Positions 4,293-57,621 of a stretch of 64,000 nucleotides of DNA are shown one piece after another. Location: the NCBI GenBank assembly GCA_951406725.2, contig OX597817.1, forward strand, positions 151,466,001 through 151,530,000, read 5' to 3'. Each line of letters starts with the position of its first letter. The first letter of the stretch is position 1. A model generated the notes under the pieces. It had not been told where the DNA came from. It did no database searches and saw only the letters and a program-made list of their open reading frames with translations. Position numbers and translations under genes: made by a program. Origin of the DNA: Octopus vulgaris (Eukaryota).

Positions 4293-4675
4293 TTTACTTG
4301 TTTCAGTCATTTGACACTGGCCATGCTGGAGCACCGCCTTTAGTCGAGCAAATCGACCCCAGGACTTATTCTTCGTAAGCCTAGTACTTATTCTATCGGT
4401 CGCTTTTACCAAACCGCTAAGTTACGGGGACGTAAACACACCAGCATCGGTTGTCAAACGATGTTGGGGGGATAAACACAACACACAAACATACACATAT
4501 ATATATATATACATATATACGACGGGCTTCTTTCAGTTTCCGTTTACCAAATCCACTCACAAGGCTTTGGTCGGCCCGAGGCTATAGTAGAAGACACTTG
4601 CCTAAGGTGCCACGCAGTGGGACTGAACCAGGAACCATGTGGTTGGTAAGCAAGCTACTTACCACACAGCCACTC
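4293..4675 (-). mobile_element. tRNA-derived SINE, family A (uninterrupted copy of the family targeted at 32.7-44.1 kb)
   Basis: Minus-strand head gtggctgtgtggtaagtagcttgcttaccaaccacatggttcctggttcagtccc. Colinear with 32315-32724 joined to 44103-44140. Confidence 0.85.
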
Positions 4676-20379: not shown

Positions 20380-21840
20380 GATGCGGATTCAAATTTCAGG
20401 CGATAGAACTGATATTCGTTCTTTATAACTGGTTTCATTACACATAATACCATCTAACTCCTTTCTAGCTCCCCTGTATACTCGAACCATATCTTTCTGG
20501 TCATATCCAGAGAATTGCATATGGAGCACGAATTCCTGTACATGTTTCTTTGTTTCATAGGGTTCGCATAAGGAGAACACGTTGTTCATTATCCTAAGTC
20601 AACTATCAGTATGTTGATTTTCATGTTGTGCGACAAACTTCTTGTGAACAACATATTTAGAAGCTATGGGTTACATGTAATAGGAGTGGAGGAGCTGCAC
20701 TCTGTTGTTCACAGTTTCTAATCAAAGTTCAGTATCAAGGATAGGGAGGCAATTGTTATGGTGTCTAGTGGTGTAATCTATGGTTACCTTGACATTTGGT
20801 GGATAGAGTTAGCTACATGCTGGATGCTCTCCATATGCTACTCTCAGTTTCTATATTGCAGTTTCCTAGTGTTTATCCTAACTAGAATATTAATGTCATC
20901 TACATACCTACAGTAAAGCAAAACAGTTGTGGATTGTTCAGCTAAGGATTGCTTAAGTTTACTGTCCCACCATGTCATGAAGAGGCCAACAACATCTCCA
21001 GCCACACCGACACCAATGCTTGCACCTTGAACTTGCATGTATAGTTTCCCGTTAAACTTTATTATGTGGTTCTTCAAACTGGTTCTTGTGCTAGCTCCTA
21101 TTGCATATACAATCATTCTTTTCACCTGACTGTTGTTCTCAGGATCCTGGGTGGGTATAGTCCAGCCACTCCAGCGCTCTGCGGTACTTTTATTCACTGC
21201 CGAGGTGATGGAGGGTGGTCTTCCCCTCTGTGACCTGGTGGGAGGGAATCTATTGAGGTTAGGATTGTCTAGGTAGTTACAGTCACGTCTTAGTTTAAGG
21301 AGGAGGCCCAGTTCCCTCGTATTGACTTCGCGGAACTCTACCTCCCGCTCAAAGATAATCTCAATGCATTTTTTTCACAGCAAAATGTATGTCTATAGAT
21401 GGGTAGAGTGAAACTACATCCATACTGCTCACTATACAACCTGTGAGATCGTTGGAGTGGTTGAAACTACTGCTTCTACTGAGGAGATCCTCTGTGCTCA
21501 CACAGACATCCAGGGATATTTCAATGAGTGATCGTAACACCTGTGAAAGAAAGTAGGATATCCTGTAATTGCTGGAGATATTCGCTCGGCAAACTGGCCA
21601 GATTCGGGGGCCCATAACAGCTTTTACGTAAGGTTTATGGTCCTTACGTAACCCGTATAGCGTAAGAACATCGTTGTTGAATGCTTGGAAATTTTGTGCA
21701 ATCTGTTTCTTGGGTTGGAATATGTTGTACCACATTACCATGTGTGCATTGAGAAGATTTTCCATTCTTTCCTCTTCCTGTGATGCAACTTCTCTCATGC
21801 TACTGACGTATTGTTGCATAGCCCGGACATAGTTCTGTGG
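20380..21840 (-). mobile_element. Penelope-like reverse transcriptase, pseudogenised
   Basis: Fragments LYGLRKDHK, SMDVVSLYPSID, QVQGASIGVGVAG and YCRYVDDI across several frames with stops. Confidence 0.85.
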
Positions 21841-30957: not shown

Positions 30958-32314
30958 TACATAAGAAGATGATAGTTTTTCGAACGCTGAGTTGCCGCTG
31001 TACAAGCAGAAATACTGGGTAAAATTAACCTTTGGTGAAAATATTTGTCAACAACCAGCCATGGGACTCAAACCCATATCCCTCAAAGACTCCGGCTGAT
31101 TACTTTACCATATATATAATAAAGTAAATGGATTCATCGAATATTTAATTTAATTTTTCTACATTAAACTATGAACTTTATTCAAACAGCAATTGTCTGA
31201 ACGAATATGAAAGTAAATACTAAAATAACAACCTACAATACCTGGAAAATCGGACTGACGTTTCATGAACGATTTAGTACTAAAACTAAACGAAGTGAAC
31301 AACAACACGATTTTATTTCAGTAAAAACTCCAAAGTAGACACATGACATAGGAACACTAAATCTAGTAGTATGTCACATCATTTATATTACAGAATTAGT
31401 TGATGATAATGCACTTAACATTTTAAATGTCGCTGAGGTGAACATCAAAAAGTTTTTTTTCAATTCCAACTAAGATTTGTACTGAAAAAAAAATGCATAA
31501 AAAACCCTTAAATGAAACAGTATCGTGATATAAACAAAGACTGGACAGTTATCCTGTCAAATTTGGGCGAAAATAATAAAAAAAAAAGCTGGTTCCAAAA
31601 GTCGATTTATTGGTCTAAAATCATTTTATATCTTTTATTTTTGACAGCTTGAAGGATTATATTACAAGAATTAAACGCACAAAAGCAACAATAAAACGGC
31701 AACACTGAGGCATCTACTTACATTGGAATGTCATTCGAAGAATATAAATCTGCATTTATGGCAACATATAAGCATAGGCTGAAAGAACTAATGATATAAT
31801 CGATATAAGCTGGTCAGGATTCTGGATATCTTGAACAAAATGTTTTAGCTAATATAGAACTATGAAGTAAAGGGATTTTCAACCAATGTATAAGTACAAA
31901 TATCATTATCAGTTCTCTGGGTATATATCATACATACCAATATATGCTACAACACAGTAATCTGAATCACGTCTCTTTTTCAAATAATAACTTACGTCCT
32001 TCAAACGGAAGAGTTACATTAGATAATATAGTACATGACATACGCAATGCCAGTGAGAAACACGAAGAACATCGTGAAATCCTAGGTCTGCTCGTGCAAG
32101 GCTGACTTAGGGGTAAGGATAATTGAGATGTCAATTATACGAGGTGGTGCTGAAATGGGTTTGGGTAAAAGAAAACAGAAGGATCGTTTAATTATGATGC
32201 TATTCAGTATATCCCCCCTCTCAGCTCTACACACTTATTGCAGCGGTCCTTCAGTTTTTCTAAGCCCTATAAAAGCTCTCCCTCGTAGTTCATGGATTTT
32301 AAAAATTAAAATAT

Positions 32315-32536
32315 ACTCTCTTTACTCTCTTTTACTCTTTTACTTCTTTCAGTCATTTGACTGCGGCCATGCTGGAGCACCGCCTTTAATCGAGCAACTC
32401 GACCCCGGGACTTATACTTTTTGTAAGCCCAGTACTTATTCTATCGGTCTCTTTTTGCCGAACCGCTAAGTAACGGGGACATAAACACACCAGCATCGGT
32501 TGTCAAGCAATGCTAGGGGGACAAACACACACACGC

Positions 32537-32581
<45 letters not shown>

Positions 32582-32724
32582 TACGACGGGCTTCTTTCAG
32601 TTTCCGTCTACCAAATCCACTCACAAGGCTTTGGTCGGCCCGAGGCTATAGCAGAAAACACTTGCCCAAGGTGCCACGCAGTGGGACTGAACCCAGAACC
32701 ATGTGGTTGGTTAGCAAGCTACTT
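32315..32724 (-). mobile_element. SINE family A, 3' part including the B box, interrupted by the ORF1-only array
   Basis: Colinear with 4293-4650 up to ...agcaagctactt, where homology stops abruptly. Confidence 0.9.
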
Positions 32725-34921
32725 TATTTCAAAACATTTGCCATAAAGGCAGTACACAGATTAAGTTAGCTTTGCGGGCTGGACGAGGACATTAATGAAG
32801 TGAATGATAATGAAAGAAAGATGATAAGGATGGGAGAAGACAGAAAGCGCCCGCCGACTTTTGCTTCTCTAAAACATTGTTCTTTTTAAAAAGATAAACA
32901 CAAAACGAGGTATAAAACCTCTTACAATTTTCCCCAATTTTTGGGCTTAGCAGTCCATTATTAATACAAAACGAGGTATTAATCCTCTTTCAATTTTTCA
33001 ATTTTTGGACTTAAGTCCATTACTAATAATACATATCGTCCTCGAAATAGCTTGTGCCCGCGCCCTCCACCATCAACCACGCCTCCCTCAGAACGTAGTC
33101 AAGTTCCGAGTTCGCGTCGCCCGGGACCAAGTTATAATCTTCGTTGAGCTCCTTTAGCCCTAGCGTCACGTCGAACGCCACGGCCTCCACAGCTACCTGC
33201 GGAGGCCATTCGGGGTCCTGTGTGAAGGCTAAAGGTGCTCCCTTGTAGTGCTCTTCCATCACTTTTTCAATTTCTCCTCCTCTATAGAAGAGGACCAACA
33301 CATTTAGTTCTTTCGTTGGCGGCACAGTTTCCGCCAACGGTATTCCTTCTCTTGTCGGTGGTACAACCCCAACCGACGTAGTTCCGCGACATTCCGGTGC
33401 TACACTGACAGCCGGTAATGTCCCGTTTTTCTTCCTCTTTTTCTTTTTTTTTCCCTTTTCAACTGAGGGAGGGTGCGTCTCCTCCGTAGCTGGAAGATTC
33501 GCCTTCCTCTCCTCATCCCTATTATCCTTTGGTGAGCACCCATTGTTGCTCACCTTCCTCTTTCGGCCTCTGTTTGAGGAGTCCTCTGCTTTCTCGGCCG
33601 TTATCGTTCCCTCTTCTAGAGGGGTTTTACCTAACTGTTCCGGGATCCTATTTTGTTCCCGAGGACAGTTCTTCTTTATGTGGCCGGACTCCAAGCACCG
33701 ATGACACTTAGGGGGGCGACCCTCAAGCATCACCGGGTACCTGCACCCGGCCATTTTCAAAAAATCTGGAAGAACCAGATTGGCTGATTGGGTCCACAGA
33801 GTCAAAATTGCTTTCGACCCAACCCAAGCAGCCGCAGGAAGAACTTTTACATTGAGGAGCTTAGTTTCGCTGTCACCCAGACCCCGGCGGATAGTCTCCT
33901 CTATCCACTCGGGTTCTATGTCGGGTGGCAGTCCGCAGATCCAAGCTTTCATCAATTTCTTTTTTTTGTACGTGGGCAGGAATAAGATTTCCTTACCCTC
34001 CAAGGGTTTGCTAGCAAATATGCAAGCCTCTTCAGGGGTGTCAAATAGCAACCACACCGTTGCATATTTGACACCCCTGGAAATGAATTTAATTGTTGGC
34101 AAATACTCTTCCAACTCCTCCTCAATTGCCGTCTTTTCGAATAGGGCGATGGTGTTAAGTGCCTTGGAGTAGGTTCTCAACACCACCGTCCTATCTTCAC
34201 GGTCTTTTAACCACTTTTTGGGTGGTATGATTTCCCACTCCAAAATTTTGTTATTTTTCATTGCCATGTTTTTTTTAAAATATATTCAAATTAAACTCAA
34301 AAGCAGGAAGAAAAAAGTTCAAAAGTCTAAATAAAATTTGATAGATTTTTGAAAAAACAAAAAGGAGAAAGCACAACAGAAGGGAAGAAATTAACGGAAA
34401 GTCGCAATAAAGAAAAAAAACAAAAGGGGGGTTAAATGAAGTTCAAAAGAAAGTTAATAAACAGAAAAAACACAGCAAAAATATTCTGGCCTTGCGGTAC
34501 TCCCGGCCTGGGTTGAACCTGGAACGCCGCAACTGCAACACAACCTCCACAAAAATGGGTCCGAAAGGTAATCCAATAGTGGCTTATTTTTATAATTTTC
34601 TTGCGAAGTAGTAAAACACAAGCAAACAAGTTAATTTTTGCGGAGGGGCTACGCCTCCTCAAAAAGCACAATTCTCACTAAAGAGTGAGACCTTAGACAC
34701 GACAACAGGCAGAGAAATATATCTGAAGTAAAGTGAAGTCTATTACCCGCAAAAAAATATTAATGCTAGATAACGTTAACTGCTAAATAACATTAAGCAA
34801 GCAATAAACTTCACTATGCTTCTAAAAATACAGAACGTCTTACCTGTCACCGAGTCAAAAGTTCAACATTTCACGTTCAAACACGTGACATTTGCAGGAG
34901 CAAAAAACAACACGTCTGTCT
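32725..34921 (-). mobile_element. ORF1-only retroelement unit 1 (most divergent)
   Basis: Bounded by target repeats at ~32709-32724 and 34922-34936. One 5' monomer, ORF1, 3'UTR hairpin and tail. Confidence 0.8.
33023..34267 (-). CDS. Gag/ORF1-like protein, 414 aa, Tx1/L1 ORF1-like (RRM-like N-terminus, CCHC knuckle, basic tracts)
   Basis: Intact intronless ORF with CHRCLESGHIKKNC (C-x2-C-x4-H-x4-C) preceded by YPVMLEGRPPK, and KKKKKRKK. Confidence 0.85.
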   Translation of the reverse strand: MAMKNNKILEWEIIPPKKWLKDREDRTVVLRTYSKALNTIALFEKTAIEEELEEYLPTIKFISRGVKYATVWLLFDTPEEACIFASKPLEGKEILFLPTYKKKKLMKAWICGLPPDIEPEWIEETIRRGLGDSETKLLNVKVLPAAAWVGSKAILTLWTQSANLVLPDFLKMAGCRYPVMLEGRPPKCHRCLESGHIKKNCPREQNRIPEQLGKTPLEEGTITAEKAEDSSNRGRKRKVSNNGCSPKDNRDEERKANLPATEETHPPSVEKGKKKKKRKKNGTLPAVSVAPECRGTTSVGVVPPTREGIPLAETVPPTKELNVLVLFYRGGEIEKVMEEHYKGAPLAFTQDPEWPPQVAVEAVAFDVTLGLKELNEDYNLVPGDANSELDYVLREAWLMVEGAGTSYFEDDMYY

Positions 34922-34936
34922 GGTAAGAAGCTACTT

Positions 34937-36950
34937 TATTTTATATAATTTGCCACTAGGGCAGCACACAGAGTAGCTGCGGGCTGGACAAGGACATTAA
35001 TGGATGATGGTGGTGGTGGATGACGATGGTGATGGGAGAAGTCAGAAAGCGCCCGCCGACTTTTGCTTCTCTAAAACAATGTTCTTTTTTTTTTTCAATC
35101 ATTTACAAAATTTCAAAAATTACAAAAAATTCGAAAAATTTTCACAGAAATTTCAATTTACACTTTTTAAAAGTCTCTTCAGAGGCAATAAACCTCTGTC
35201 ACAATGTAACACAATTACAATTTTACGTTACCTGACCGATGAACTCTCTTGCTTTAATGACGCAATCGTTCATCGTCAGGCTTCCGCATACTGGTATGAC
35301 TTGCAAGAGATCCTCCGGGAAAGAATTCTCGATCCTGCACATATCATTTTCGAGTAGGACCTCCGCAGCCAGCTGCGAAGGCCACTCGGGATACTCTATG
35401 CAGGACCGAAGTCCCTCCCATTCGTTTCTCTTCCTCCTCTTACGTATTTCGTTTTCTATAGTGCCTCCTTTATGGAAGAGGACTACATAAAATTTGTCCG
35501 GCATTACAATCGCCGGAGGACACCTGGGAGGCGCCTTCTGTGTGTTACAGTCCGCTGGCGGCGTCCCGTTCCTCTTTTTCTTTTTACGCTGGGCCTCGGG
35601 AGGTTGAGGTTCCGGTGCTATACGCACCGGGTCCTCTTTTCTTCCGCAGCCTCCGGTTCCTTTTGTGGGTCGCCATTGCTTCCCACTCTTCTTTTTCTTT
35701 TGGCGGAGGGTTTTTCCCCCTCCTCGCTTTGTTTCTCTCCCTCCATTGGTGAGGCAGGGAGAGGCTCTAATATTAACTTCTCCAGGATCCTACTCTGGTT
35801 CCTGGAGCAGTTTTTCTTAATATGGCCGGTCTCCGAGCACAGGTGACACTTGGGGGCGCGTCCCTCTAGCATCACCGGATACTTGGAACCGGCCATCTTT
35901 AGGAAGTCCGGCAAAACCAGACTCTTGGCCGACTGGGTCCACAGAGTTAAAGTAGCCTTTCCTCCTTCCCAGTTAGCCGCAGGCTGCATTCTTACGTTCA
36001 GGATCTTGGCGCTACCACCACTCAGACCCCGGCGGATGGAATCTTCCACCCACTCGGGCTCAAAGCCGGGCGGCAGGCCGCAGACCCATAAACGTAGCAA
36101 TTTTTCCCCCTTATAGCTTGGGAGAAACAGAATCTCTTGGCCCTCAATGGGCTTACTTGCGAAATCGCAAGCTGCTTTAGGAGAGTCAAACAGCAACCAA
36201 ATCGTTGCGTATTTGGCTCCCCGTTGAATGTGTTTAACGGCTGGCATATAGTATGCCAGCTCGTTCATAATTGTGTCTTTCGGAAAGACCATTATGGTGT
36301 CGAGAGACTTCGAATATGTCCTCAGCACCACTGTCTTTTCCTCAAGTTCGTTCAAATATTTTTTGGGAGGTGTTAATTCCCACACTGTGAAATTCCTTGC
36401 CATAACTTAAGAAAAACAGTTCAAAATGTTACAAAATAAATTAGACACAGAAAGGAGAATGAAAAAAGCAACAGAAGGGAGGAAATAAAAATAAAAATGG
36501 CAGTTCAAAGAAAGTTTTTTTCAAATGAATGATAGGCAGAGAAAGAGAGTTCAAATTCAGACAAAGGAATTTTTTCACTTTTTCGGCCAAAAATTGTACT
36601 CCAGGCCAAGTATATGGTTGGTACAACACCTTGGTAAATGATCCTTGGTAAATCCGTAGATAACACAACGATAATTTCAAAAATAATTTTTGTAGACGGA
36701 CTACGCCGCCTCAAAAACACAATTTTCTTCACACCCGACAACAGGCAGAAAAATTATATCCGGAGCAAAATGGAGCCTTATTATCTGCTAAAAATATTTA
36801 ATGCTAAAATACATTAATGCAAGTAATAAAGCTTCACTTCGCTCGCAAAAATACAAAATTCCTACCTGCAGTCGAGTCGAAAGTTCAACAATTCACGTTG
36901 AAACAACGTGGCAACCGGAGCAGCAAAATAACACGTCTAACTCAGACGAA
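34937..36950 (-). mobile_element. ORF1-only retroelement unit 2
   Basis: Bounded by ggtaagaagctactt at 34922 and 36951. One 5' monomer. Confidence 0.8.
35223..36403 (-). pseudogene. ORF1-like gene with a single frameshift near 35638
   Basis: ORFs 35618-36403 and 35223-35627 join to a full homologue of unit 3. One base is missing in an A run relative to unit 3. Confidence 0.75.
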
Positions 36951-37253
36951 GGTAAGAAGCTACTTTATTTCATTTAATTTGCCACAAGGGCAGTACACAG
37001 ATAGTAGCTACGGGCTGGACATAGACATTAATGAATGATGGTGATGGAATGAAGATGGTGATGGGAGAAGACGAAAGCGCCCGCCGACCCCCGCTTCTCT
37101 AAAACAATGTTCTTTTTTCAATAATTTTACAAAATTTTCAAAATTTCACAAAAATACAAAAATTTCACAAAAATTCCAAATTTTACAAATCACAATTTCA
37201 AAAGTTTTTCCACACGCAAAAAACCTCCATCACAATATAACACAAATACAGGT

Positions 37254-38453
37254 TCACGTTACCCGACCGATGAACGCTCTTGCTTTATTGACGCAATCGT
37301 TCGCCGTCAGGCCCCCGCATACAGGTAAAATTTGATAGGAGTCCTCCGGGAAAGATTTCACGAACCTGCACCGATCGTCATGGAGTAGGACCTCCGCAGC
37401 CAGCTGCGAAGGCCACTCGGGATACTCCATGCAGGACCGAAGTCCCTCCCATTGGTTTCTCTTCCTCATTTTACCTATTTCATCTTCTATTGTTCCTCCT
37501 TTGTAGAAGAGGACTACATAATATTTCTCCGGCCACACAATCACAAACGGCGGAGGAGACATTGGAGACACCGTCTGCGTGTTACAATCCGCTGGCGGCG
37601 TTCCGTTCCTCTTCTTTCTTTTTTTCTTTTTACCGTGGGCCACGGGAGGTTGAGGTTCCGGTGTTGCACACGCCGGATCCACTCTGTCTCCCGTAGCTTC
37701 CTGGTCTTTTAGTGGGTCACCATTGTTCCCCACTTTTCGTTTTCTCTTTGAGGAAGTCTCCGCTTCCTCGTTCTGTTTCTCTCCCTCTATTGGTGGGGCA
37801 GGGAGAGGCTCCGATATCAACTTCTCCAGGATCCTACTTTGGTCCCTGGGGCATTTCTTCTTAATGTGGCCGGTCTCCGAACACAGGTGACACTTGGGGG
37901 CGCGTCCCTCTAGCATCACCGGATACTTGGACCCGGCCATCTTCAGGAAGTCCGGCAAAACCAGACTCTTGGCCGACTGGGTCCACAGAGTCAAAGTAGC
38001 CTTTCCTCCTTCCCAGTTAGCCGCAGGCTGCATTTTCACATTCAGGATCTTGGCACGACCACCGCTCAGACCCCGGCGGATGGAATCTTCCACCCACTCG
38101 GGCTCAAAGCCGGGCGGCAGGCCACAGACCCATAAACATAACAATTTTTCCCCCTTGTAACTGGGGAGAAACAGAATCTCATCGCCCTCAATGGGCTGGC
38201 TTGCAAATTTGCAAGCTGCTTCAGCGGAGTCAAATAGCAACCATACCGTTGCGTATTTGACTCCCCGTTGAATATGTTTAACGGCTGGCATATAGTCTGC
38301 CAGCTCGTTCACAATGGTGTCTCTCGGAAAAACCATTATGGTGTCGAGTGACTTTGAATATGTCCTCAACACCACGGTCTTTTCCTCGAGTTCGTGCAAA
38401 TATTTTTTGGGAGGTGTTAACTCCCACACAGTGAAATTCTTTGCCTGTGCCAT
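37254..38453 (-). CDS. Gag/ORF1-like CCHC protein, 399 aa
   Basis: Intact ORF with CHLCSETGHIKKKC, paralogous to units 1, 2, 4 and 5. Confidence 0.85.
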   Translation of the reverse strand: MAQAKNFTVWELTPPKKYLHELEEKTVVLRTYSKSLDTIMVFPRDTIVNELADYMPAVKHIQRGVKYATVWLLFDSAEAACKFASQPIEGDEILFLPSYKGEKLLCLWVCGLPPGFEPEWVEDSIRRGLSGGRAKILNVKMQPAANWEGGKATLTLWTQSAKSLVLPDFLKMAGSKYPVMLEGRAPKCHLCSETGHIKKKCPRDQSRILEKLISEPLPAPPIEGEKQNEEAETSSKRKRKVGNNGDPLKDQEATGDRVDPACATPEPQPPVAHGKKKKRKKRNGTPPADCNTQTVSPMSPPPFVIVWPEKYYVVLFYKGGTIEDEIGKMRKRNQWEGLRSCMEYPEWPSQLAAEVLLHDDRCRFVKSFPEDSYQILPVCGGLTANDCVNKARAFIGRVT

Positions 38454-38791
38454 AACGTAAAATACAACAGTTCAAAATGATAAACTAAAATTAGCCACAG
38501 AAAGGAGAATGAAAAAAAGCAACAGAAGGGAAGAAATAAAATTAAAAATGGCAGTTCAAAAAAGTTTTTACAAATAAATAATAGACAGAGAAAGAGAGTT
38601 CAATTCAGACAAAGGAATTCAGTTCTTTTTTTTTTTTCCACTTCTTCGGCCAAAAATTGTAATCCAGGCCAAATGCACTGTTGGTAAAACCCTTGGTAAA
38701 TAATCCTTGGTAATCCGTGGACAACACAACGACAATTTCAACAATAATTTTTTCAGACGGACTATGCCGCTTCAAAAATACAATTTCTTTT

Positions 38792-39370
38792 CACTCGACA
38801 CAGGCAGAAAAATTATATCTGGAGCAAAGTGGGGCCTTATTATTTGCTGAAAAATATTAAATGCTAAAAAACATTCATGCAAGTAATAAAACTTCACTAA
38901 ACTCGCAAAATCATAAAACGCCTACCCGTAGTCGATTCGAACGTTCAACAATTCACGTTGAAATAACGCGACATCAATACAATTTTCTTTCCACTCGACA
39001 CAGGCAGAAAAATTATATCCGGAGCAAAGTGGAGCCTTATTATCTGCTAAAAAATATTTAATGCTAAAAAACATTAATGCAAGTAATAAAACTTCACTAA
39101 ACTCGCTCAAAAAATACAAAATTCCTACCTTAGTCGATTCGAACGTTCAACATTTCACGTTGAAACAACGCGACATCAATACAATTTTCTTTCCACTCGA
39201 CACAGGCAGAAAAATTATATCTGGAGCAGAGTGGAGCCTTATTATCTGCTAAAAAATATTTAATGCTAAAAAACATTAATGCAAGTAATAAAACTTCACT
39301 TCGCTCACAAAAATACAAAATTCCTACCTTTAGTCGAGTCGAAAGTTCAACAATTCACGTTGAAACAACG
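38792..39370. repeat. Tandem ~200 bp 5' monomers (x3) of unit 3
   Basis: cactcgacacaggcagaaaaattatat recurs at 38792, 38992 and 39194. Confidence 0.9.
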
Positions 39371-39702
39371 TTCATCTGGAGCAGCAAAAAAACACGTCCG
39401 AACAGTTCAGTGGTAAGCGAGCTACTTTATTTCATTTAATTTGCCACAAGGGCAGTACACAGATAGTAGCTACGGGCTGGACATAGACATTAATGAATGA
39501 TGGTGATGAAGTGAAGATGTTGATGGGAGAAGACGAAAGCGCCCGCCGACCCCCGCTTCTCTAAGACAATGTTCAATGAATACATTTAGTAAAATGTTCA
39601 AAAATGTTCAGAATGTTCAAATTACATTTTTTTCAGAGGAGGTAATAAACCTCCTCTTCAACATGTTCAAAATGTTCAAAAAGTGTTTAACAATTCTCCC
39701 CG

Positions 39703-40896
39703 TCAGGTCCCCGAAGCAAATTGTCTTGCCGCCTGCAGACAACTCTGCGACGACAAGTCGAGGCCTGCAAAGAGAAAAGTAAAATCTTTCCTCTGAAAGG
39801 TCTCTGCGACCCTTGTCAAAATATCTTCCGTTACTACCTGCGCAGCTACCCGCGGAGGCCATAACGGACTCCTTGAGCCGACCGTGTCCTTGCGTTCTCG
39901 GTCACCCAAGTCATTTAAAAACTTTTCCACCTTCCCTCCCTTGTGGTAAAGGAGGAGAAATAACTCCTCTTCACAGGAAGGGACCTCACACTGATCCGTC
40001 AGTAGCACACTTCCCACCCGCGGTTCCGTCGGAGACACAGAAACGTCAGACGTCCGACCTCTCCTTTTTCTCCTCCTTCTTTTGGGGGAGACTGCTAACC
40101 CAGGGGACTCCGTCACTAGACACGGGGGAATGCTATCCCCCTCCGCCCCCTGAGCGTTCTTTGGTGGGCAACCGTTGTTGCTCGCCAGCCTCTTTCTTTT
40201 CGTGGAGGCAACATCCTCCGTCTCCCCCTCCAATGAGGGGACGGCGGGCACCTTTTCCTTTTCATGTTCCGGGGCGGCACCACGGCCCCCGGGACACTTC
40301 TTCTTAATATGTCCAGGCTCCGAGCACCGGTGACACTTGGGGGCGCGTCCCTCAAGCATCACCGGATACTTGGATCCGGCCATCTTCAGGAAGTCTGGCA
40401 AAACCAGACTCTTGGCCGACAGGGTCCACAGAGTCAAGGTAGCCTTTCCTCCTTCCCAGTTAGCCGCAGGCTGCATTTTCACATTCAGGATCTTAGCGCT
40501 ACCACCGCTCAGACCCCGGCGGATGGAATCTTCCACCCACTCGGGCTCAAAGCCGGGCGGCAGGCCACAGACCCATAAACGTAACAATTTTTCCCCCTTG
40601 TAACTGGGGAGAAACAGAATCTCATCGCCCTCAATGGGCTGGCTTGCAAATTTGCAAGCTGCTTCAGCGGAGTCAAATAGCAACCATACCGTTGCGTATT
40701 TGACTCCCCGTTGAATATGTTTAACGGCTGGCATATAGTCTGCCAGCTCGTTCACAATGGTGTCTCTCGGAAAAACCATTATGGTGTCGAGTGACTTTGA
40801 ATATGTCCTCAACACCACGGTCTTTTCCTCGAGTTCGTGCAAATATTTTTTGGGAGGTGTTAATTCCCACACAGTGAATTTCTTTGCCTGTGCCAT
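39703..40896 (-). CDS. Gag/ORF1-like CCHC protein, 397 aa, divergent C-terminal half
   Basis: Intact ORF. The N-terminal ~200 aa are nearly identical to unit 3; CHRCSEPGHIKKKC is followed by a divergent sequence. Confidence 0.85.
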   Translation of the reverse strand: MAQAKKFTVWELTPPKKYLHELEEKTVVLRTYSKSLDTIMVFPRDTIVNELADYMPAVKHIQRGVKYATVWLLFDSAEAACKFASQPIEGDEILFLPSYKGEKLLRLWVCGLPPGFEPEWVEDSIRRGLSGGSAKILNVKMQPAANWEGGKATLTLWTLSAKSLVLPDFLKMAGSKYPVMLEGRAPKCHRCSEPGHIKKKCPGGRGAAPEHEKEKVPAVPSLEGETEDVASTKRKRLASNNGCPPKNAQGAEGDSIPPCLVTESPGLAVSPKRRRRKRRGRTSDVSVSPTEPRVGSVLLTDQCEVPSCEEELFLLLYHKGGKVEKFLNDLGDRERKDTVGSRSPLWPPRVAAQVVTEDILTRVAETFQRKDFTFLFAGLDLSSQSCLQAARQFASGT

Positions 40897-41235
40897 AACG
40901 TAAAATACAACAGTTCAAAATGGTAAACTAAAATTAGACACAGAAAGGAGAATGAAAAAATGCAACAGAAGGGAAGAAATAAAATTGAAAATGGCAGTTC
41001 AAAAAAGTTTTTACAAATAAATAATAGACAGAGAAAGAGAGTTCAATTCAGACAAAGGAATTCAGTTCTTTTTTTTTTTTTCCACTTCTTCGGCCAAAAA
41101 TTGTAATCCAGGCCAAATGCACTGTTGGTAAAACCCTTGGTAAATAATCCTTGGTAATCCGTGGACAACACAACGACAATTTCAACAATAATTTTTTCAG
41201 ACGGACTATGCCGCTTCAAAAATACAGTTTCTTTT

Positions 41236-41600
41236 CACTCGACACAGGCAGAAAAATTATATCCGGAGCAAAGTGGAGCCTTATTATCTGCTAAAAATAT
41301 TAAATGCTAAAAAACATTCATGCAAGTAATAAAACTTCACTAAACTCGCAAAAATACAAAATTCCTACCTTTAGTCGATTCGAACGTTCAATATTTCACG
41401 TTGAAACAACGCGACATCAATACAATTTTCTTTCCACTCGACACAGGCAGAAAAATTATATCTGGAGCAAAGTGGAGCCTTATTATTTGCTAAAAAATAT
41501 TTAATGCTAAAAAACATTAATGCAAGTAATAAAACTTCACTTCGCTCACAAAAATACAAAATTCCTACCTTTAGTCGAGTCAACAATTCACGTTGAAACA
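41236..41600. repeat. Tandem ~200 bp 5' monomers (x2) of unit 4
   Basis: Monomer starts at 41236 and 41435. Confidence 0.9.
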
Positions 41601-41958
41601 CGTGGCATCTGGAGCAGCAAAAAAACACGTCCGAACACTTCAGTGGTAAGAAGCTACTTTATTTCATCTAATTTGCCACAAGGGCAGTACACAGATAGTA
41701 GCTACGGGCTGGACATAGACATTAATGGATGATGGTGGTGGTGAATGACGATGGTGATGGGAGAAGTCAGAAAGCGCCCGCCGACTTTTGCTTCTCTAAA
41801 ACAATGTTCTTTTTTTTTTTTTTTCAATCATTTACAAAATTTCAAAAATTACAAAAAATTCAAAAAATTTTCACAGAAATTTCAATTTACAATTTACACT
41901 TTTTAAAAGTCTCTTCAGAGGCAATAAACCTCTGTCACAATGTAACACAATTACAATT

Positions 41959-43144
41959 TTACGTTACCTGACCGATGAACTCTTTTGCTTTAATGACGCA
42001 ATCGTCCATCGACAGGCTTCCGCATACTGGTATGACTTGCAAGAGATCCTCCGGGAAAGAATTCTCGATCCTGCACATATCATCTTCGAGTAGGACCTCC
42101 GCAGCCAGCTGCGAAGGCCACTCGGGATACTCCATGCAGGACCGAAGTCCCTCCCATTCGTTTCTCTTCCTCCTTTTACTTATTTCATTTCTATTGTTCC
42201 TCCTTTGGAAGAGGACTACATAAAATTTGTCCGGCATTACAATCGCCGGAGGACACCTGGAGACGCCTCTGCGTGTTACAGTCAGCTGGCGGCGTCCGTT
42301 CCTCTTTTTCTTTTTCTTTTTACGCTGGGCCTCGGGAGGTTGAGGTTCCGGTGCTATACGCGCCGGGTCCTCTTTTCTTCCGCAGCCTCCGGTTCCTTTT
42401 AGTGGGTCGCCATTGCTTCCCCACTTTTTTTTCTTTTGGTTGGAGGGTTTCCCTTCCTCGTTCTTTGTTTCTCTCCCTCCATTGGTGAGGCAGGGAGAGG
42501 CTCTATATCAACTTCTCCAGGATCCTACTTCTGGTCCCTGGGGCATTTCTTCTTAATGTGGCCGGTCTCCGAACACAGGTGACACTTGGGGGCGCGTCCC
42601 TCTAGCATCACCGGATACTTGGATCCGGCCATCTTCAGAAGTCTGGCAAAACCAGACTCTTGGCCGACTGGGTCCACAGAGTCAAAGTAGCCTTTCCTCC
42701 TTCCCAGTTAGCCGCAGGCTGCATTTTCACATTCAGGATCTTGGCGCTACCACCGCTCAGACCCCGGCGGATGGAATCTTCCACCCACTCGGGCTCAAAG
42801 CCGGGCGGCAGGCCACAGACCCATAAACGTAACAATTTTTCCCCCTTGTAACTGGGGAGAAACAGAATCTCATCGCCCTCAATGGGCTGGCTTGCAAATT
42901 TGCAAGCTGCTTCAGCGGAGTCAAATAGCAACCATACCGTTGCGTATTTGACTCCCCGTTGAATATGTTTAACGGCTGGCATATAGTCTGCCAGCTCGTT
43001 CACAATGGTGTCTCTCGGAAAAACCATTATGGTGTCGAGTGACTTTGAATATGTCCTCAACACCACGGTCTTTTCCTCGAGTTCGTGCAAATATTTTTTG
43101 GGAGGTGTTAATTCCCACACAGTGAATTTCTTTGCCTGTGCCAT
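41959..43144 (-). pseudogene. ORF1-like gene with several 1 bp indels (real or sequencing error)
   Basis: ORFs 42635-43144 and 41959-42237 plus intervening homology. Several indels fall in short homopolymers. Confidence 0.75.
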
Positions 43145-43486
43145 AACGTAAAATACAACAGTTCAAAATGGTAAACTAAAATTAGACACAGAAAGGAGAA
43201 TGAAAAAATGCAACAGAAGGGAAGAAATAAAATTGAAAAATGGCAGTTCAAAAAAGTTTTTACAAATAAATAATAGACAGAGAAAGAGAGTTCAATTCAG
43301 ACAAAGGAATTCAGTTTTTTTTTTTTTTTTTTCCACTTCTTCGGCCAAAAATTGTAATCCAGGCCAAATGCACTGTTGGTAAAACCCTTGGTAAATAATC
43401 CTTGGTAATCCGTAGACAACACAACGACAATTTCAACAATAATTTTTTCAGACGGACTATGCCGCTTTAAAAGTACAATTTCTTTT

Positions 43487-44060
43487 CACTCGACACAGGC
43501 AGAAAAATTATATCTGGAGCAAAGTGGAGCCTTATTATTTGCTAAAAAATATTAAATGCTAAAAAAACATTCATGCAAGTAATAAAACTTCACTAAACTC
43601 GCAAAAACACAAAACGCCTACCCGAGTCGATTCGAACGTTCAACAATTCACGTTGAAACAACGCGACATCAATACAATTTTCTTTTCACTCGACACAGGC
43701 AGAAAAATTATATCTGGAGCAAAGTGGAGCCTATTATCTGCTAAAAAATATTTAATGCTAAAAAACATTAATGCAAGTAATAAAACTCCACTCCGCTCGC
43801 AAAAATACAAAATTCCTACCTTTAGTCGATTCGAACGTTCAACAATTCACGTTGAAACAACGCGACATCAATACAATTTTCTTTCCACTCGACACAGGCA
43901 GAAAAATCATATCTGGAGCAAAGTGGAGCCTTATTACTTGCTAAAAAATATTTAATGCTAAAAAACATAATGCAAGTAATAAAACTTCACTTCGCTCACA
44001 AAAATACAAAATTCCTACCTTTAGTCGAGTTGAAAGTTCAACAATTCACGTTGAAACACG
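43487..44060. repeat. Tandem ~200 bp 5' monomers (x3) of unit 5
   Basis: Monomer starts at 43487, 43687 and 43886. Confidence 0.9.
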
Positions 44061-44102
44061 TGGCATCTGGAGCAGCAAAAAAACACGTCTGAACACTTCA
44101 GT

Positions 44103-44140
44103 GGTAAGAAGCTACTTTCCACACAGCCACTCCTGCGCCT
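44103..44140 (-). mobile_element. SINE family A 5' head (A box), resuming after the array
   Basis: ggtaagaagctactttccacacagccactcctgcgcct matches 4635-4675 (ggtaagcaagctacttaccacacagccactc). Confidence 0.85.
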
Positions 44141-44143
44141 AGA

Positions 44144-44590
44144 CTAGCTAATTTGACCCGTGCTTCGCTCGAGTTTTAGTGGTGGTGTTGTTTTGTGCGT
44201 GTTGTCTCCTTTTCCCTTTCTTCTTTTGTTCGTCTTCTTTGCCTGGTTCTTTTTATTGCCTCTTCTTTACCCCACTTTCCAAAAATCGCCCAAATTTTTA
44301 CACCCACAATGAAAGATAACCGCCTCTAGCCCCTACAGCAACACGAAAAGCCACCATTATTCAAACAGCGCAACCTGTCTATCCCATAAAACTCAAATTT
44401 TCTCATATTCCTCACCATGGCAACCAAACGGTAGTCCCGAGCGACTTACAACCTTCCTTACACCATTTCCACCCCATTTTACCCTCCAGAGTAAACTTTG
44501 GTACCAATCTTTAAACCGTTCCCATCCCAAAATAAGACAAATAACCAAGAAATCAAACAACTTTTTCGCATTTCAGCTTTATAGATATTG
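44144..44590 (-). mobile_element. Non-autonomous Helitron-like element
   Basis: CTAG end with subterminal hairpin gacccg-tgcttcgc-tcgagt. Other end resembles the cagctttatagat termini of other copies. Confidence 0.55.
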
Positions 44591-45042
44591 ACATGGAAGG
44601 AAATAGGAAATGTATTAATTGCTAGACACTCAGATAAAAGCAGAGAGCTATAGTTCTTATAAATATCTGTAGTGGGAACATATGAGGTACAAATTGGCTT
44701 AATGATTCACACGCCAGTATTAGAATATTACTGTAATCCTAAACGTCGTTCAAAAATAGTTTCAGTTTATTATTACAGTGGGGGGCTTTACTATGTGAAC
44801 GCGCCTGACCTAGTAGTTAGGTTGTTGCACTCACGATCGCAAGTTCGTGGTTTCGATTCACGGACTGGGCGATGCATTGTGCTCTTGAGCGAAGCACTTC
44901 ATTTTACATTGCTGCTGTTCACCCAGCTATTAATGAGTAACCCCGAGATGTACTGCGACCGCTGTCAGGAGAATGTTGTGATCTCAACCAGCCCTATGAT
45001 TTGACAGTGTAATGTCCTGGGGGTTGTTCTTGTTCTTGCTGT

Positions 45043-45082
<40 letters not shown>

Positions 45083-45849
45083 AATGATGATTTTGCTATG
45101 ACAGACACAATGCCGCCTTTAAAAAAGAAGCGATATATTTTGCAAGCCCAGATACCCAACATCCTGGAAAAAGATGAGTTGGTCATGACTGGAACACCTT
45201 TGATTATATACGCTTGTTGATGATGCGACATTAAACTTAGTAACAAACTATATCTATAAGAAGAAAAAAACTACACATAAAAAGATTAATTTAACGAATA
45301 TTTGAATACAAATAACCGGAAAGAAACTAACAGCTCAAATAATTTTGTTCTCTGCAGCAAATACACATGTTATGTAATAATGCCAACTCTTTAAAAAATA
45401 CGAATGTATCATCCAATGGTTTTGGAAAATACGATTTAGAACAAGCTGACATATAATCCTAGACTTTTGCTTTGATCTTCCATGATATAATTTCGTTCAA
45501 ACCCCGATAAACTATTTATTGCTTATCTCTGTCACAAATGCAGAACATTGTAGGGATTCTTGAATTCTCTAAAACTGACGGAACATGCAGGTCACCATGA
45601 TCGAGATTTTACACAGCGCATGCGCGCACATATATACACGTAACACACGCTCTCTCACCCTCGTTCTCTCCCTCCCTCCCTCTCTCTCTCGTTCTCTCCC
45701 CCCTCCCTCTCTCTCTCTCGTTTCCCCCCTCCCTCTCTCTCTCTCGTTTCCCCCCCTCTCTCTCTCTCTGTGTGACACATACAGACCCACCCACGCCTAC
45801 ACCTACACACACACACACACACACACATGTGTCTTCAATAACTCCTTTG

Positions 45850-50121: not shown

Positions 50122-50354
50122 TATTTCTTTATTGCCCACAAGGGGCTAAACATAGAGGGGACAAACAAGGACAAACAAAGGGATTAAATCGATTACATCG
50201 ACCTCAGTGCGCAACTGGTACTTAATTTATTGACCCCGAAAGGATGATAGGCAAAATCGACCTCGGCGGAATTTGAACTCAGAACGTAACGGCAGACGAA
50301 ATACTGCCAAACATTTCGCCCGGCATGCTAACGTGTCTGCCAGCTCACCGCCTT
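50122..50354 (-). mobile_element. SINE family B, full length
   Basis: Reverse complement of 28486-28718. Confidence 0.9.
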
Positions 50355-50884: not shown

Positions 50885-51440
50885 GCTGTTGTTGTTGTTG
50901 TTGTTAAGCAACAAGACGGGTAAGGGTGATTTCACTGCGTCCGTTCTGTGGGTTGGGAAACGTCTGGCAGGTCGGGAGCGGAAGTCCACTTTTCCCAGAT
51001 CCGAAGGACAAGGAGAGGGTCACTGGCCAGAGCGTCTGAGGGGGGCGGCATTTGCGGTGGGCGATGGATCCGTGGACAGTCGTAGATGACATACTCCGCC
51101 GTCTCCTCTCCCACTCCGCACTTTCTGCAGGTTCTGTCTATGGTTCGGTCGATCTTGTAGAGCCAGTACTTGAGGTCCGGGTGATGACCACTTCTAAGTG
51201 TGCTGAGTGCTACCTGCTGCTGCCTGGTTAGAGACGAATCAGCGGTTCTGCTCACTTTATCTCCATGGATGCCGTAGATCCTCTTGACTCTTTCGTGTTT
51301 GAAGGGAGATGGTTTAAGTGTCCGGTGGATCGCTGCTTTCGCTGCATCGTAGTGGTGGTGGGCTGTTGTCTGGTCTCCTTCTACATTTTCTGCGACTTCG
51401 AAGGCCATCTCCCAGTGGTATCGGGCGTCAACGAAGAACC
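50885..51440 (-). mobile_element. I-group-like LINE 3' fragment (post-RNase H region, C-terminal zinc finger) with (CAA)n tail
   Basis: LTRQQQVALSTLRSGHHP..L....CRKCGVGEETAEYVIYDCP, followed on the minus strand by a short UTR and (CAA)n. Confidence 0.75.
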
Positions 51441-51555: not shown

Positions 51556-54500
51556 TAATTCTTTTTTATTGGCCACAAGGGCTGACACGCATGATTACAT
51601 AAAGGGACAAAACAGGACGAAAGGTTACAAAGGGTTTTGTCCGTTTGTGAAAAATCCGAGTAAAAACTTTATAACAATTAAAAAATTAATAATGAAAAAC
51701 TCCCAAAAGGGGAAGGCGTTATGAAAGGTTCCTGGTGGAAAAAACCCTATAAAAGCCAACGGGAGCCTGGTCAAAAAAGGGGTGTAGAGAGTCCCTTTTT
51801 TCTCCTTTTATATTACCTTTTGAAATCACAGGCGAAACCTGAGAACTGGTCCATTTATACTGGCCAGTCTCGCACAATTCACCCACCTTTCATAAAACTT
51901 GCTATCGGACAGCACTTTCCTCTCTAACCTCATCTTCCTTTTCAAGTGAAACTTGAAAAAGTTGATGAGGCCTTGACCAATGAGGCCTTGACCAAAGTGT
52001 CTGACTTTAGCCCTTTCAAACGAGTCCATCATACAACTTCTTTCGCCACAGCCACTAGGCACAAGAAAACGGCCTCGCCCTCCTTGTTAAAGGAGGTCGG
52101 CGGGGCAATCTTCACTATGGATTCGGCCGATAGTCGGATCCGTCCTACACGTGACAGTAGCTGTTCGACATAAACCCATATTTCAGCAATACTCGGGCAC
52201 TGGACGAGTGCGTGCAGAACGGTTTCGTCGTCCTGGCAACACCTCGGGCAGGCCCGGCTGACGGCACTTCCGTGCCGGTAGAGTTTATCTCAAACAGGCA
52301 GAGCCCCTCGGTAGCACTGCCAGGCGAGCGACCTCTGGAAATTATCCATCGGCCCCGGCCCGAAAGTCCTTCCGAACAGACCGCTCAGTTCGTCATCTTC
52401 AACGCCTAGAGTTTCCCCGAGAACGTCGTCGCATTTCTCCTCCACTAACCCTCTATAGAACGCTAGAGTGGAGCTGTAACCGATCGCATTGCCCGCCTGG
52501 CGGAGGGCGGAGAGAGCTTGACGGCACTCGAGGTGCCAAGCGCCCTTTCTCGGTCTACGTTTGATCCAGGTCTGCAGCTCTGTCAAAGAGACGAGCTGCG
52601 GAAAATCGCGTCTGACAAAAGACGACCACACCTGTTCACCGTCTAGGAAGCGCTTGAGATGTCGCAGCCTGAGCGCATGTCTGCGCATCAGCAACCACGG
52701 CATTCCAAGGCCTCCGTTCAGCGGTCGTTGACAGCAGATGGATCGCCTGACCAGTGGCACCTGACCCTTCCACAAAAAGTCGAAGAGCAGGCGTACCAGC
52801 TTGGCCAACCAGCGGTCGGGACAAGGGACGACGGTCAAGCGGTAATAGATGACGGATGCGATGTACGCATTCGCCACCTCCGCTCGACCTTTCAGGGACA
52901 GCTTCCTCTCGGCCCATTTCTGGCTGAGACGTGCCACCCTGCTCGTCACCTCTTCCCAGTTTTTATCCACCTGGAGGTCCGGACCGAACCAGACCCCGAG
53001 CAGTTTAACGGGTCCGTCTGTCCAGCGCCCTACGACGCTGTTGGACGGCATGGGCTTGCCTCTCCAGGTGCCCAGTTGCAAGCCCACAGACTTTTCCGCG
53101 TTAATCTTTGCCCCTGTCACCGCTTCGTACTGGTTTAGTGTCTCGCCAATCAGGCCAATGTGCCTGTGACTCGACACCATCACGGTGACGTCGTCGGCAT
53201 AGGCAGACACGCTGTTTCCGTCTCCTAGATCGCGCGGGATACCCCTCAAAGCCTCCAACTTGCGCAGTAATGGCTCGAGAGTCAATATGTACAAGCGGGA
53301 GGAGAGAGGGCATCCTTGGCGGACCGAACGCGAGATGTAGAACGGTTCCGAAAGGTGACCGTTCACCCGTATCACCGAGCAGATGTTGCTGTATAAAGCA
53401 GCTATCCACCCGCGGAACACTGGACCGAAGCCGGCTGCCTTGAGGACAGCTGCCAGGTACCGATGGTCGACCCTATCGAAGGCTTTACTCTGATCCAAGT
53501 TGATCAAAGCCCCACCCGCGCCAACGTCGTTACCCACCCTCTCTATGATGTAGCGCATGAGATGGAGGTTGTCGTGTATCGACCTGGTCGGCACGGCGCA
53601 TGTCTGCGTCTTGCCGACCAGCTTGTCCACGACAAGCGCCAATCTCTTGGCTAGCACCTTGGCCAAAATCTTCAACTCTGCATTAAGCAGAGTGATGGGC
53701 CGGAAATTCCCTATAACGTCCCCATCGTTTGGGTCCTTCTTCAGCAAAGCCACCACCCTTCGACAGACAAAAGCAGGAATTTTCCCGTTTTGCTGCCAGT
53801 TGCAGTAGACGTTTGCCAACAGGCCCGCAAACGAGTCTGGCATTGAAACGTAAAGCTCGTAGGGCAGACCATCCAAACCTGGCGATCTACCTCTCGTGCA
53901 ACTCTTCATCGCTTCCTCCACTTCCCAGGCAGATATCGGTCCTTTGCAGCACTCTGCCTCGTTGTCCGAGAGTTGCGGTAGGCCGTCCAGGTACACACCG
54001 AAGTCTGCACCGTTGTCCGTTCCACCGCTCGTCCCAAACAGCTGAGCAAAGTGCCGCTGAAGCACCGTACACATCTGCTTCGGTTCGGTAACCTCGCGCC
54101 CGTTCTGGTCCACCAAAGACCGAATGGTTGCTTTGTTGCCTCGCTTCGCCTCCGCCACGCGGGCCCATCGAGCGGCTCTAGTCCCCTCCCCGCTTAGCGA
54201 ACGTGCCTTAGCTCTGACAACGCAGCCTTCGTGTTTGGCGTCGAAGTGTTGGTCGAGGGCCAACCTTGCCGCCAACACGTCGGTCGCGATGCCAGTGTCA
54301 AGAGCCTCGTCTAGTTTCTTAACTAAATCCCGCTCTCTCTTCATACGTTCAATAGCTAGTGTCTTAATATACCTAATCGACTCTACTCTAATTGCTCTCT
54401 TGAGGGCAAACCACCAGTTGTTGTTGATGATTGCCCCCGTGAGCGCCCGCTTAACTAGTAAACTAATCCGGTCTCTGTAGGCTTTGCACGCCGTTAACGA

Positions 54501-54965
54501 CGCGTTCAGCTTCCAGTAGCTGGGTCCCTGTCTATGTAGCCTATCTAAGTCGACCGTACAGATCCCTAATTTGTGGTCCGTATAGTCGACTATGTGGAAT
54601 TGTGGACACCCTACGCTGTCCTTATCCGCTGGCCTACAAAACACTCTATCTAAGTACGATCTAGACGACCCGATGCGATTGGCCCAAGTCCACATTGGCA
54701 CATTCGGGTTGTCTAGTCGAAACCTGTCGGACAGCTGAAAGCGGCCGAGTAGGTTGGCGAGGCTCTTGCGCCCTCCCCCTCTCATATCAGACGCTCCCCT
54801 GCCCACCCGATCAAAACGTTCGTCTACGACAGCGTTCCAATCCCCAACTAGCACTAGAGTGCGTGACGTTCCCAGGAAAACTTCCAGGCGTTTGAAATAA
54901 TCCGACTGCCCTGCTCCTGTCGGAGCGTAGGCAGCCAGCAGTCTGTAAGCACCGCCGTCACTACC
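51556..54965 (-). mobile_element. Tx1/L1-clade non-LTR retrotransposon, 5'-truncated within the endonuclease
   Basis: Partial APE domain (AYAP, VGDWN, SYLDRVF, TDH), RT, zinc finger CPRCCQDDETVLHALVQC, 3'UTR and a tail next to (TTA)n. Confidence 0.92.
51826..54965 (-). pseudogene. Tx1-like ORF2 (endonuclease-reverse transcriptase), N-truncated, with an in-frame stop at 52290
   Basis: 854 aa open segment with SPGLDGLP, NFRPITLLN, DQSKAFDRVDH, RQGCPLS and YADD. Homology continues past the TGA at 52290 to the stop at 51826. Confidence 0.9.
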
Positions 54966-55639: not shown

Positions 55640-56560
55640 TTCCATGAATTTGTGTTTGAATGATTTTCTTGCGAACTGAACCTCAGGAATATCACGAGCC
55701 AAGTTCCAACAATAGTCCACTATCATATGCAAGTCCCATCTGCCTTTGTATCTTTGTTCCATTGATTTGATGTCGTGGTTGGAAACTTATGACATCGATG
55801 TTTTCAGGGAATTTATCAACGTGACTGCACCTTTATGATCAAATTTTCTCCCAACTTTTGAAAGTTCTCCAGCATTTTGTCAACTGTTTCGCTATTGTTG
55901 GCTGTTTTCTTGTCGACCAGAAAGTCATTTACAACTATTACAAATGAATTCCATGCTACTGTTTCAATGAAATTCATTGAAATTACAAAGTTCCTATCTG
56001 TCATCAATTTTCTGATTTGAGGCCTATCAAATAATCTGGCATTTATCTTGTCACTGCTCAAACCGGGAAAAGTGCTGCAGATATAGTAAAAGCGTGTTCT
56101 GTCTTTATCCAGAGATTTAACTGTTTCGTGATACCAATTTTGATATATATTTCTTTACTGCCCACAAGGGACTAAACATATAAGGGGATAAACAAGGACA
56201 GACAAAGGATTAAGTCGATTACATCGACCCCAGTGCGTAACTGGTACTTAATTTATCGACCCCGAAAGGATGAAAGGCAAAGTCGACCTCGGCGGAATTT
56301 GAACTCAGAACGTAACGACAGACGACATACCGCTAAGCATTTCGCCCGGCGTGCTAACGTTTCTGCCAGCTCGCCGCCGTACCAAGTTCGATATAGAGTG
56401 GAGGTTGGATGATTTTCTCCAGTTGAATGAAAGATTTTTCAACCACATTAAAAGGCCTTGGAACTAATGTTTTCTGTGGCCATTCTTTGATCAGGCACTA
56501 TTTTTCCTTAGCTCAGTTGTACCACATGCATAATTTAATTTCGTACACACTTTCATAGGT
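55640..56560 (-). mobile_element. Decayed DNA transposase remnant, probably Chapaev3-like, interrupted by a SINE
   Basis: KINARLFDRPQIRKLM..AWNSFVIVVNDFL..MLENFQKLG and downstream MEQRYKGRWDLHMIVDYCW. Superfamily assignment is from recall and tentative. Confidence 0.6.
56150..56378 (-). mobile_element. SINE family B with imperfect TSD
   Basis: Full-length copy flanked by taccaattttgatata and taccaagttcgatata. Confidence 0.9.

Positions 56561-57550: not shown

Positions 57551-57621
<71 letters not shown>

Follow-up and report, generated by a model that had tools for sequence, protein, structure and literature searches.

Five ORF1-only retroelements at a SINE-head target in Octopus vulgaris, likely stacked by serial insertion with L1/Tx1-type helpers

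A 64,000-nucleotide stretch of the Octopus vulgaris genome (assembly GCA_951406725.2, contig OX597817.1, positions 151,466,001 to 151,530,000), hereafter the window, contains five retroelements that each encode only a first open reading frame (ORF1) and lie head to tail within one short interspersed element (SINE). We conclude, with a probability of about 0.82, that they are members of a dispersed family at one SINE-head site and, judging from sequence comparisons, that they were likely inserted serially by target-primed reverse transcription with the endonuclease and reverse transcriptase (RT) of L1/Tx1-type helper long interspersed elements (LINEs). The family, its copy number and site, the lack of ORF2, selection on ORF1, the presence of helpers at the same site, and the 3' end common to both were observed directly.

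The array and its target

The sequence-only reading of the window had described five co-oriented units of 2.0-2.5 kb at one SINE site, and this layout holds: the units are bounded by six copies of a junction motif, and the SINE resumes beyond them (Table 1). The minus strand carries the SINE and all ORFs, and on it the order is SINE head (24 nt), target, units 5-4-3-2-1, target, and SINE body, and all five units share the orientation of the SINE; the target thus falls about 24 nt into the SINE head. The SINE body to the left of 32724 aligns with an intact copy elsewhere in the window in 347 of 381 columns, and the head picks up again at 44118-44141. The sole further copy of the junction motif in the window is found at 4645, within that intact SINE. 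The same motif had been claimed for every junction; it is present at all of them, but the copies differ among themselves and thus cannot all be plain duplications. An apparent 'sixth unit' in the window proved to be a false junction and was excluded from later counts.

The target SINE is about 400 bp long, with a simple-repeat tail and a very high copy number; 54,990 exact 32-mer empty targets were counted in the genome, which is a lower bound. The tRNA derivation earlier given for this SINE is tentative: its sole basis is A- and B-box-like motifs recognized by eye, and neither ARAGORN nor Rfam gave a tRNA match. The target itself, an imperfect palindrome, folds into an 8-bp hairpin.

Each unit carries one to three copies of a ~200-bp monomer at its 5' end and terminates in a 4-bp hairpin plus an A-rich 14-mer, with no poly(A) tail; the 3' untranslated region spans 275-298 nt in the units where it was measured. 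The folding energy of the hairpin alone is not significant (z 0.0 in unit 1 and -1.1 in unit 3), so that the case for the hairpin rests on conservation. A splice-donor-like G|GTA(A/G)G was found 90-105 nt inside the 5' end of each window unit. Of 127 full-size units, 115 (including 12 of the 13 helpers) have it between +41 and +143, in most cases between +75 and +121. This motif recurs though the 5' ends are unrelated (background, 60 of 1052 windows), and no spliced copy was seen; the target motif itself can also be read as a splice donor.

A dispersed and site-specific family

A search of the same genome with 200 amino acids (aa) of unit 3 gave at least 150 scored matches on many contigs, and all 30 extracted loci, three of them from the window, terminate at the target motif. 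A 26-nt pattern of the 3' end has 654 exact matches genome-wide and none in the reverse control; 502 of the 654 directly precede the AAG(T/A)AGCT target motif. The first 30 3' ends in genome order comprise 27 at the head site in forward orientation, two reversed there, and one elsewhere in the same SINE, the reversed insertions being explained by the quasi-palindromic target. Dispersed copies show target duplications and 5' truncations, and the insertions of older subfamilies are in a variant SINE, again at this position. ORF1 is present, and ORF2 remnants are absent, in every one of the 114 full-size non-autonomous units that were parsed. The genome search thus bears out the earlier proposals that dispersed copies share the SINE site (29 of the first 30 3' ends) and lack ORF2, and the description of a target-specific, HAL1-like family fits elements that are dispersed, carry ORF1 only, and encode a homolog of L1-group ORF1. 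A second ORF1-only lineage (1.5 kb, with a 408-aa ORF) was identified at the same target in loci L084 and L160, its ORF1 being 36-40% identical to that of the helpers; two ORF1-only lineages therefore use this site. At loci L112 and L074, two opposed element 3' ends lie near one SINE, and the head that follows one of these has an inverted hairpin loop.

The ORF1 of ~400 aa that had been assigned to each unit is intact in units 1, 3, and 4 and frameshifted in units 2 and 5, where the frameshifts may be real or partly assembly errors. In the three intact window ORFs, Pfam detected no more than a weak zinc knuckle, and a PDB sequence search together with Pfam on 116 relatives revealed nothing beyond it. 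As a lead only, the N-terminal part resembles RRM-like ZCCHC3 domains (score 0.91). Mammalian HAL1 is L1-derived and has a knuckle-less ORF1 and a poly(A) tail; the octopus elements have a CCHC knuckle, no poly(A), and protein relatives named from octopods only, and are thus not HAL1 in the strict sense. The dN/dS ratio is 0.13-0.28 over ORF1 residues 1-205 and 0.23-0.63 past residue 205 (28 pairs of eight copies). ORF1 is under purifying selection, which suggests that the protein likely matters to its own encoding RNA. Five internal deletions that were examined lack GT-AG ends.

Purifying selection, as well as the existence of look-alike clusters with ZCCHC3 RNA-binding domains, would also suit a domesticated host gene cluster of the ZCCHC3 or L1TD1 kind. 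However, there are hundreds of dispersed copies with target duplications, an ORF of at least 380 aa persists in just 34 of the 114 full-size non-autonomous units, and arrays of distinct units make up 32 of the 75 loci parsed (the loci having been partly picked as arrays), so that a host cluster, or an assembly artefact, is barely credible.

Likely helper LINEs at the same site

Extension of the loci revealed two-ORF elements of 5.4-5.7 kb within the same arrays. One of them has an open ORF2 of 1140 aa with an APE endonuclease, an RT, and a zinc-binding domain, and the best PDB match of the helper ORF2 is human L1 ORF2p (E 7e-66); the helpers belong to the L1 group of non-LTR (long terminal repeat) retrotransposons. 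Two helper families have 114 and 23 exact 3' ends. All 20 sampled helper 3' ends lie at the SINE site with the SINE body next, in a sample that omitted four known rows (two followed by the body and two by another element). A zinc-knuckle ORF1 is a criterion of the Tx1 clade, and the helpers show such an ORF1 together with sequence-specific APE insertion; a homolog search with the helpers returned no clade-named matches, and they probably belong to the Tx1 clade.

The similarity between helpers and passengers is limited to the last 30-70 nt, including the hairpin, the pairing of which is preserved by a compensatory T-A to C-G change in one helper family. Because the insertion site and the 3' end are the same, we infer that these L1/Tx1-type LINEs likely mobilize the ORF1-only elements in trans. 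Helper and passenger ORF1 proteins share 25-29% identity (E 1e-18 to 1e-26, both helpers) and are distant in a tree of 13 rows, from which nine rows without a matching knuckle were excluded, indicating that the ORF1-only lineage is old rather than a fresh deletion product. Among the copies examined, which are not all copies, no autonomous element with the passenger type of ORF1 was found save one fusion. This 5.9-kb unit (L156, G000:C4 near 127.35 Mb) has a unit-1-type 5' part joined to the end of a helper ORF1 and to ORF2, and reflects either a template switch or an in-array deletion, as a route to ORF1 replacement. Three helper 3' ends with 5.4-kb spacing at G000:C9:2664557-2675458 likely represent an autonomous tandem array.

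Growth of the arrays

The divergence of unit 1 had been taken to favor independent insertions over tandem duplication. Independent insertion stands, since the closest copies of units 1, 2, and 3 are on other contigs (98.9%, 97.9%, and 98.1% identity), compared with at most 90.0% for unit 2 and 92.2% for unit 3 within the array; the divergence of unit 1 reflects its subfamily, however, and not its age, as its 98.9% copy elsewhere demonstrates. The 3' half of unit 4 has no match in the array and is 1-3 bases per 300 off copies elsewhere. In one subfamily (38 copies), arrays hold mixtures of haplotypes, contigs have haplotypes in common, and haplotype does not depend on the downstream partner, which argues against both simple duplication and the movement of whole blocks; arrays also combine unrelated families. 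These data make local amplification of one or two insertions, through unequal crossing-over or tandem duplication together with gene conversion, very unlikely, and for units 1-4 it is largely refuted, although it would explain why units 3-5 have 96-100% identity in the 5' half of ORF1, why unit 5 is a mosaic of neighbor-like parts, and why two adjacent pairs in another, seven-unit array are 99.7-99.9% identical. The mosaic of unit 5 could include local exchange.

The recurrent order of units, with one subfamily upstream and the unit-1 type or a helper last, would be expected if multi-unit read-through transcripts, or a composite of SINE plus insert, moved as a block. The same old haplotype occurs, however, solo, before the unit-1 type, and before a helper, and the body-side target variants vary between loci as in ordinary SINE copies, leaving block mobilization highly improbable.

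Sequence variants at the junctions indicate that the most likely way of array growth is further insertion into the target duplicate on the head side. In 28 cases, the 5' motif of the upstream unit is identical to the next junction; in three it matches the body-side junction and in 14 neither, with 12 uninformative cases. The earlier proposal of serial re-insertion at a duplicated target is thereby supported and gains a direction, toward the head side. At locus L032, a private variant occupies all three junctions of a two-subfamily array. Three motif variants were found at 42 of 127 5' junctions and at none of 72 body-side junctions, and one 5' motif variant accompanies one 5'-end type in six of nine copies, suggesting that the RNA likely carries some target-like bases. 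In one three-unit array, private changes amount to 0.23%, 0.71%, and 2.71% from head to body. Of 18 pairs, 14 show fewer private changes in the upstream than in the downstream unit (p 0.03), by a measure biased by unequal sampling (38, 25, and 11 copies), so that a polarity from younger upstream to older downstream units is weak. Longer arrays occur elsewhere, with eight units at L081-L082, nine at L084+L031, and seven at L157-L158.

Several observations weigh against serial insertion as set out here. The 28 next-junction matches, contributed by 10 arrays, lack independence, and 13 of them involve the commonest variant, which is possibly carried by the element. In the window, the match to the next junction holds for only two of four upstream units, and the units show no age gradient. 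The near-identical adjacent pairs in the seven-unit array make some local duplication possible. Short-read contigs (four runs, 43875-45600) break in the SINE head and in the repeat to its right, and thereby neither confirm nor contradict the array; they showed no empty allele. Finally, the Tx1 assignment of the helpers is a probable one, read from their features.

Bias toward occupied sites

Given the 54,990 empty targets and ~790 counted 3' ends (a lower bound), 1-2% of insertions would be expected at an occupied site. One subfamily, chosen by its 5' end alone, comprises 40 copies at 22 loci, and 36 of these copies (18 of the 22 loci) have another element immediately downstream (binomial p 2e-27 at 2% and 6e-12 at 15%). 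In non-random samples, the unit-1 type is followed by the SINE body in 29 of 29 cases and by another element in none, and the type of units 2-5 is followed by another element in 17 of 39. Among the unselected 30 3' ends, another element is next in four. The ages of neighbors correlate (Spearman 0.71, 18 pairs).

Such a bias and age correlation would also follow from a single integration episode, in which the RT, having copied one RNA, switches to others or primes anew on them and a stack represents one insertion; runs of six to seven units of near-identical age and the fusion of an ORF1-only element with a helper ORF2, which fits a template switch, point the same way. However, end-to-end jumping predicts donor-derived middle junctions, whereas the variant follows the locus: copies of one haplotype bear different variants in two arrays, and L032 has its private variant everywhere. 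The graded private changes of the three-unit array likewise disagree with one event, and we consider a single episode unlikely. Immediate re-cutting of a finished junction may occur and is included in the occupied-site step of serial insertion.

As to the cause of the bias, a resident promoter that keeps the site open seems a plausible candidate, at slightly less than even odds. A helper enzyme that is still engaged and re-cuts immediately is possible but clearly less probable, and steering by the passenger ORF1p or RNA, which is compatible with either of the other causes, appears somewhat more doubtful still. The difference in bias between subfamilies would be explained only by a passenger-steering kind of difference. 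We tentatively propose, as a possible but rather doubtful extension, that an ancient ORF1-only hyperparasite steers its helper, through the selected ORF1 protein or the RNA, from empty targets to freshly occupied sites, forming HeT-A-like stacks in SINEs. The passenger, and not the endonuclease alone, would in that case set target choice.

Proposed mechanism

In serial insertion with helpers, the 5' monomer region would likely hold an internal promoter for the RNA, which would be coated with its own ORF1 protein and whose last 30-70 nt would recruit the helper ORF2p. The endonuclease would nick the SINE antisense strand at CTT/ACC, where the terminal A residues of the RNA could prime on TT. 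A second nick up to ~16 nt downstream would then allow the end of the complementary DNA, likely with a few donor target-like bases, to anneal. The head-side copy would thus be a target/element hybrid, and its re-cutting would extend arrays toward the SINE head. The strong preference of several subfamilies for occupied sites would most likely reflect a promoter-opened site or an engaged helper enzyme.

Comparison with known systems

HAL1 (half-L1) elements of mammals are non-autonomous, encode ORF1p only, and have arisen repeatedly (PMC5753468). The octopus elements share the ORF1-only plan and its origin more than once, with two lineages here. Unlike HAL1, they reside in an octopod genome, have a zinc-knuckle ORF1, strict site specificity, and head-to-tail arrays, and end in a helper-shared hairpin instead of poly(A); their ORF1 also has only the above low identity to the present helpers. 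In crocodilians, the passenger SINEU-3 and its helper Tx1-Mar share a transposon target with a ~16-bp duplication, and tandem SINEU-3 copies that sandwich a duplication have been interpreted as sequential insertions (PMC4494074). A shared passenger/helper target in a transposon, a ~16-bp duplication, and tandem copies recur here; SINEU-3, however, is a non-coding derivative of a small nuclear RNA (snRNA) in a Mariner DNA transposon, whereas the octopus passenger encodes a selected protein and targets a SINE head.

R1 arrays in Drosophila 28S ribosomal DNA form when new copies enter the duplication flanking a resident element on its 5' side, and target bases are present on the RNA in some lineages (PMC2718515). 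The APE-type LINE machinery and the mode of array growth are alike, but R1 is autonomous and has a few hundred targets, many of them occupied, whereas stacking here is subfamily-dependent despite ~55,000 empty perfect targets. For HeT-A of Drosophila telomeres, the ORF1p has been proposed to direct the destination of its helper (PMC4700185). HeT-A is likewise an ORF1-only element in mixed tandem arrays with its RT donor, but it is of another clade, has a 3' promoter, and is added to chromosome ends without an endonuclease site; the octopus elements were found at interstitial SINE sites on many contigs.

The helpers resemble the target-specific Tx1 families Tx1L, Keno, Kibi, and Koshi (PMC4494074, PMC4640811) in being two-ORF APE LINEs specific to a repeated sequence, Tx1 and R1 being the target-specific APE clades (PMC4640811). 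The targets listed in the available accounts of Tx1 families are DNA and LTR transposons, snRNA, 5S, satellites, and microsatellites, with no SINE head among them (PMC4494074, PMC4640811), and tRNA genes are targets of non-LTR elements generally (PMC5035012). The available text of a 2026 Octopus repeat annotation gives 80 L1-Tx1 families with no detail and makes no mention of ORF1, HAL, or targets (PMC13282606). In the accessible literature outside Repbase, Dfam, and subscription papers, we found neither a site-specific ORF1-only family nor a SINE-head LINE. The ORF1-only plan, the shared passenger target, and R1-like arrays are therefore known, and the subfamily-specific bias toward occupied sites is unexpected.

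The octopus elements form a three-level parasite system, with a SINE as landing pad, a site-specific LINE, and an ORF1-only passenger, in which many copies are young. Subfamilies with a seemingly common helper and target range from 0/29 to 36/40 in occupied-site landing, a contrast that makes ORF1 retention and site choice beyond endonuclease specificity testable by swaps. The helper, whose 3' signal is short, is a candidate site-specific integrase of the APE type. Annotation is also affected, as the ORF is carried as an uncharacterized host gene in one octopus.

Features of the window

Table 1. Array, target SINE, and element features in the window
Feature	Position	Strand	Basis
SINE head, first ~24 nt, with A-box-like motif, separated from body by array	44118..44141	-	SINE comparison
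Head-side target-motif copy (junction 6)	44103..44117	-	motif search
Unit 5 (2443 bp), ORF1-only, mosaic resembling units 3/4 in its 5' part and unit 2 in its 3' part	41660..44102	-	
Unit 5, three ~200-bp 5' monomers	43474..44058	-	
Unit 5 ORF1, 169 aa open, then frameshift	42635..43144	-	
Junction 5	41645..41659	-	motif search
Unit 4 (2217 bp), ORF1-only, differing ORF1 C-terminal half, two monomers	39428..41644	-	
Unit 4 ORF1, intact, 397 aa, CCHC knuckle 187-202	39703..40896	-	
Junction 4, variant motif	39412..39427	-	motif search
Unit 3 (2446 bp), ORF1-only	36966..39411	-	
Unit 3, three ~200-bp 5' monomers	38777..39370	-	
Unit 3 ORF1, intact, 399 aa	37254..38453	-	
Junction 3	36951..36965	-	motif search
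Unit 2 (2014 bp), ORF1-only	34937..36950	-	
Unit 2 ORF1, 261 aa open, frameshifted	35618..36403	-	
Junction 2	34922..34936	-	motif search
Unit 1 (2197 bp), ORF1-only, separate subfamily; likely earliest insertion	32725..34921	-	
Unit 1 ORF1, intact, 414 aa	33023..34267	-	
Unit 1 3'-terminal hairpin, 4 bp + 5-nt loop, common to autonomous LINEs; likely RT recognition signal	32739..32751	-	
Body-side target copy, likely original target	32709..32724	-	
SINE body and short-repeat tail	32314..32708	-	
Uninterrupted target-SINE copy, reference empty site	4293..4675	-	

Short ORFs at 21361-21819 and 50932-51408, both on the minus strand, resemble fragments of other retroelements and have no Pfam match. 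In the region 57623-58108, segments of 130-180 bp are duplicated almost perfectly (97.7-100%), both inverted and direct, which may be an assembly artefact or a foldback. An RT at 52290-54785 was considered as a helper and rejected, with 67% DNA identity to the helpers and a position outside the SINE site. The 5'-truncated LINE at 51560-54960 (minus strand) is of another L1/Tx1-type family, with an 831-aa piece of ORF2 that is 63% identical to the helpers at the amino acid level; it has a similar 3' hairpin and ends at an (ATT)n/(AGC)n stretch, outside the SINE site. A second SINE family, at 50122-50352, 56143-56377, and 57323-57557, has a 3' tail similar to the helper 3' end with the same kind of hairpin and is likely mobilized by an L1/Tx1-type LINE.

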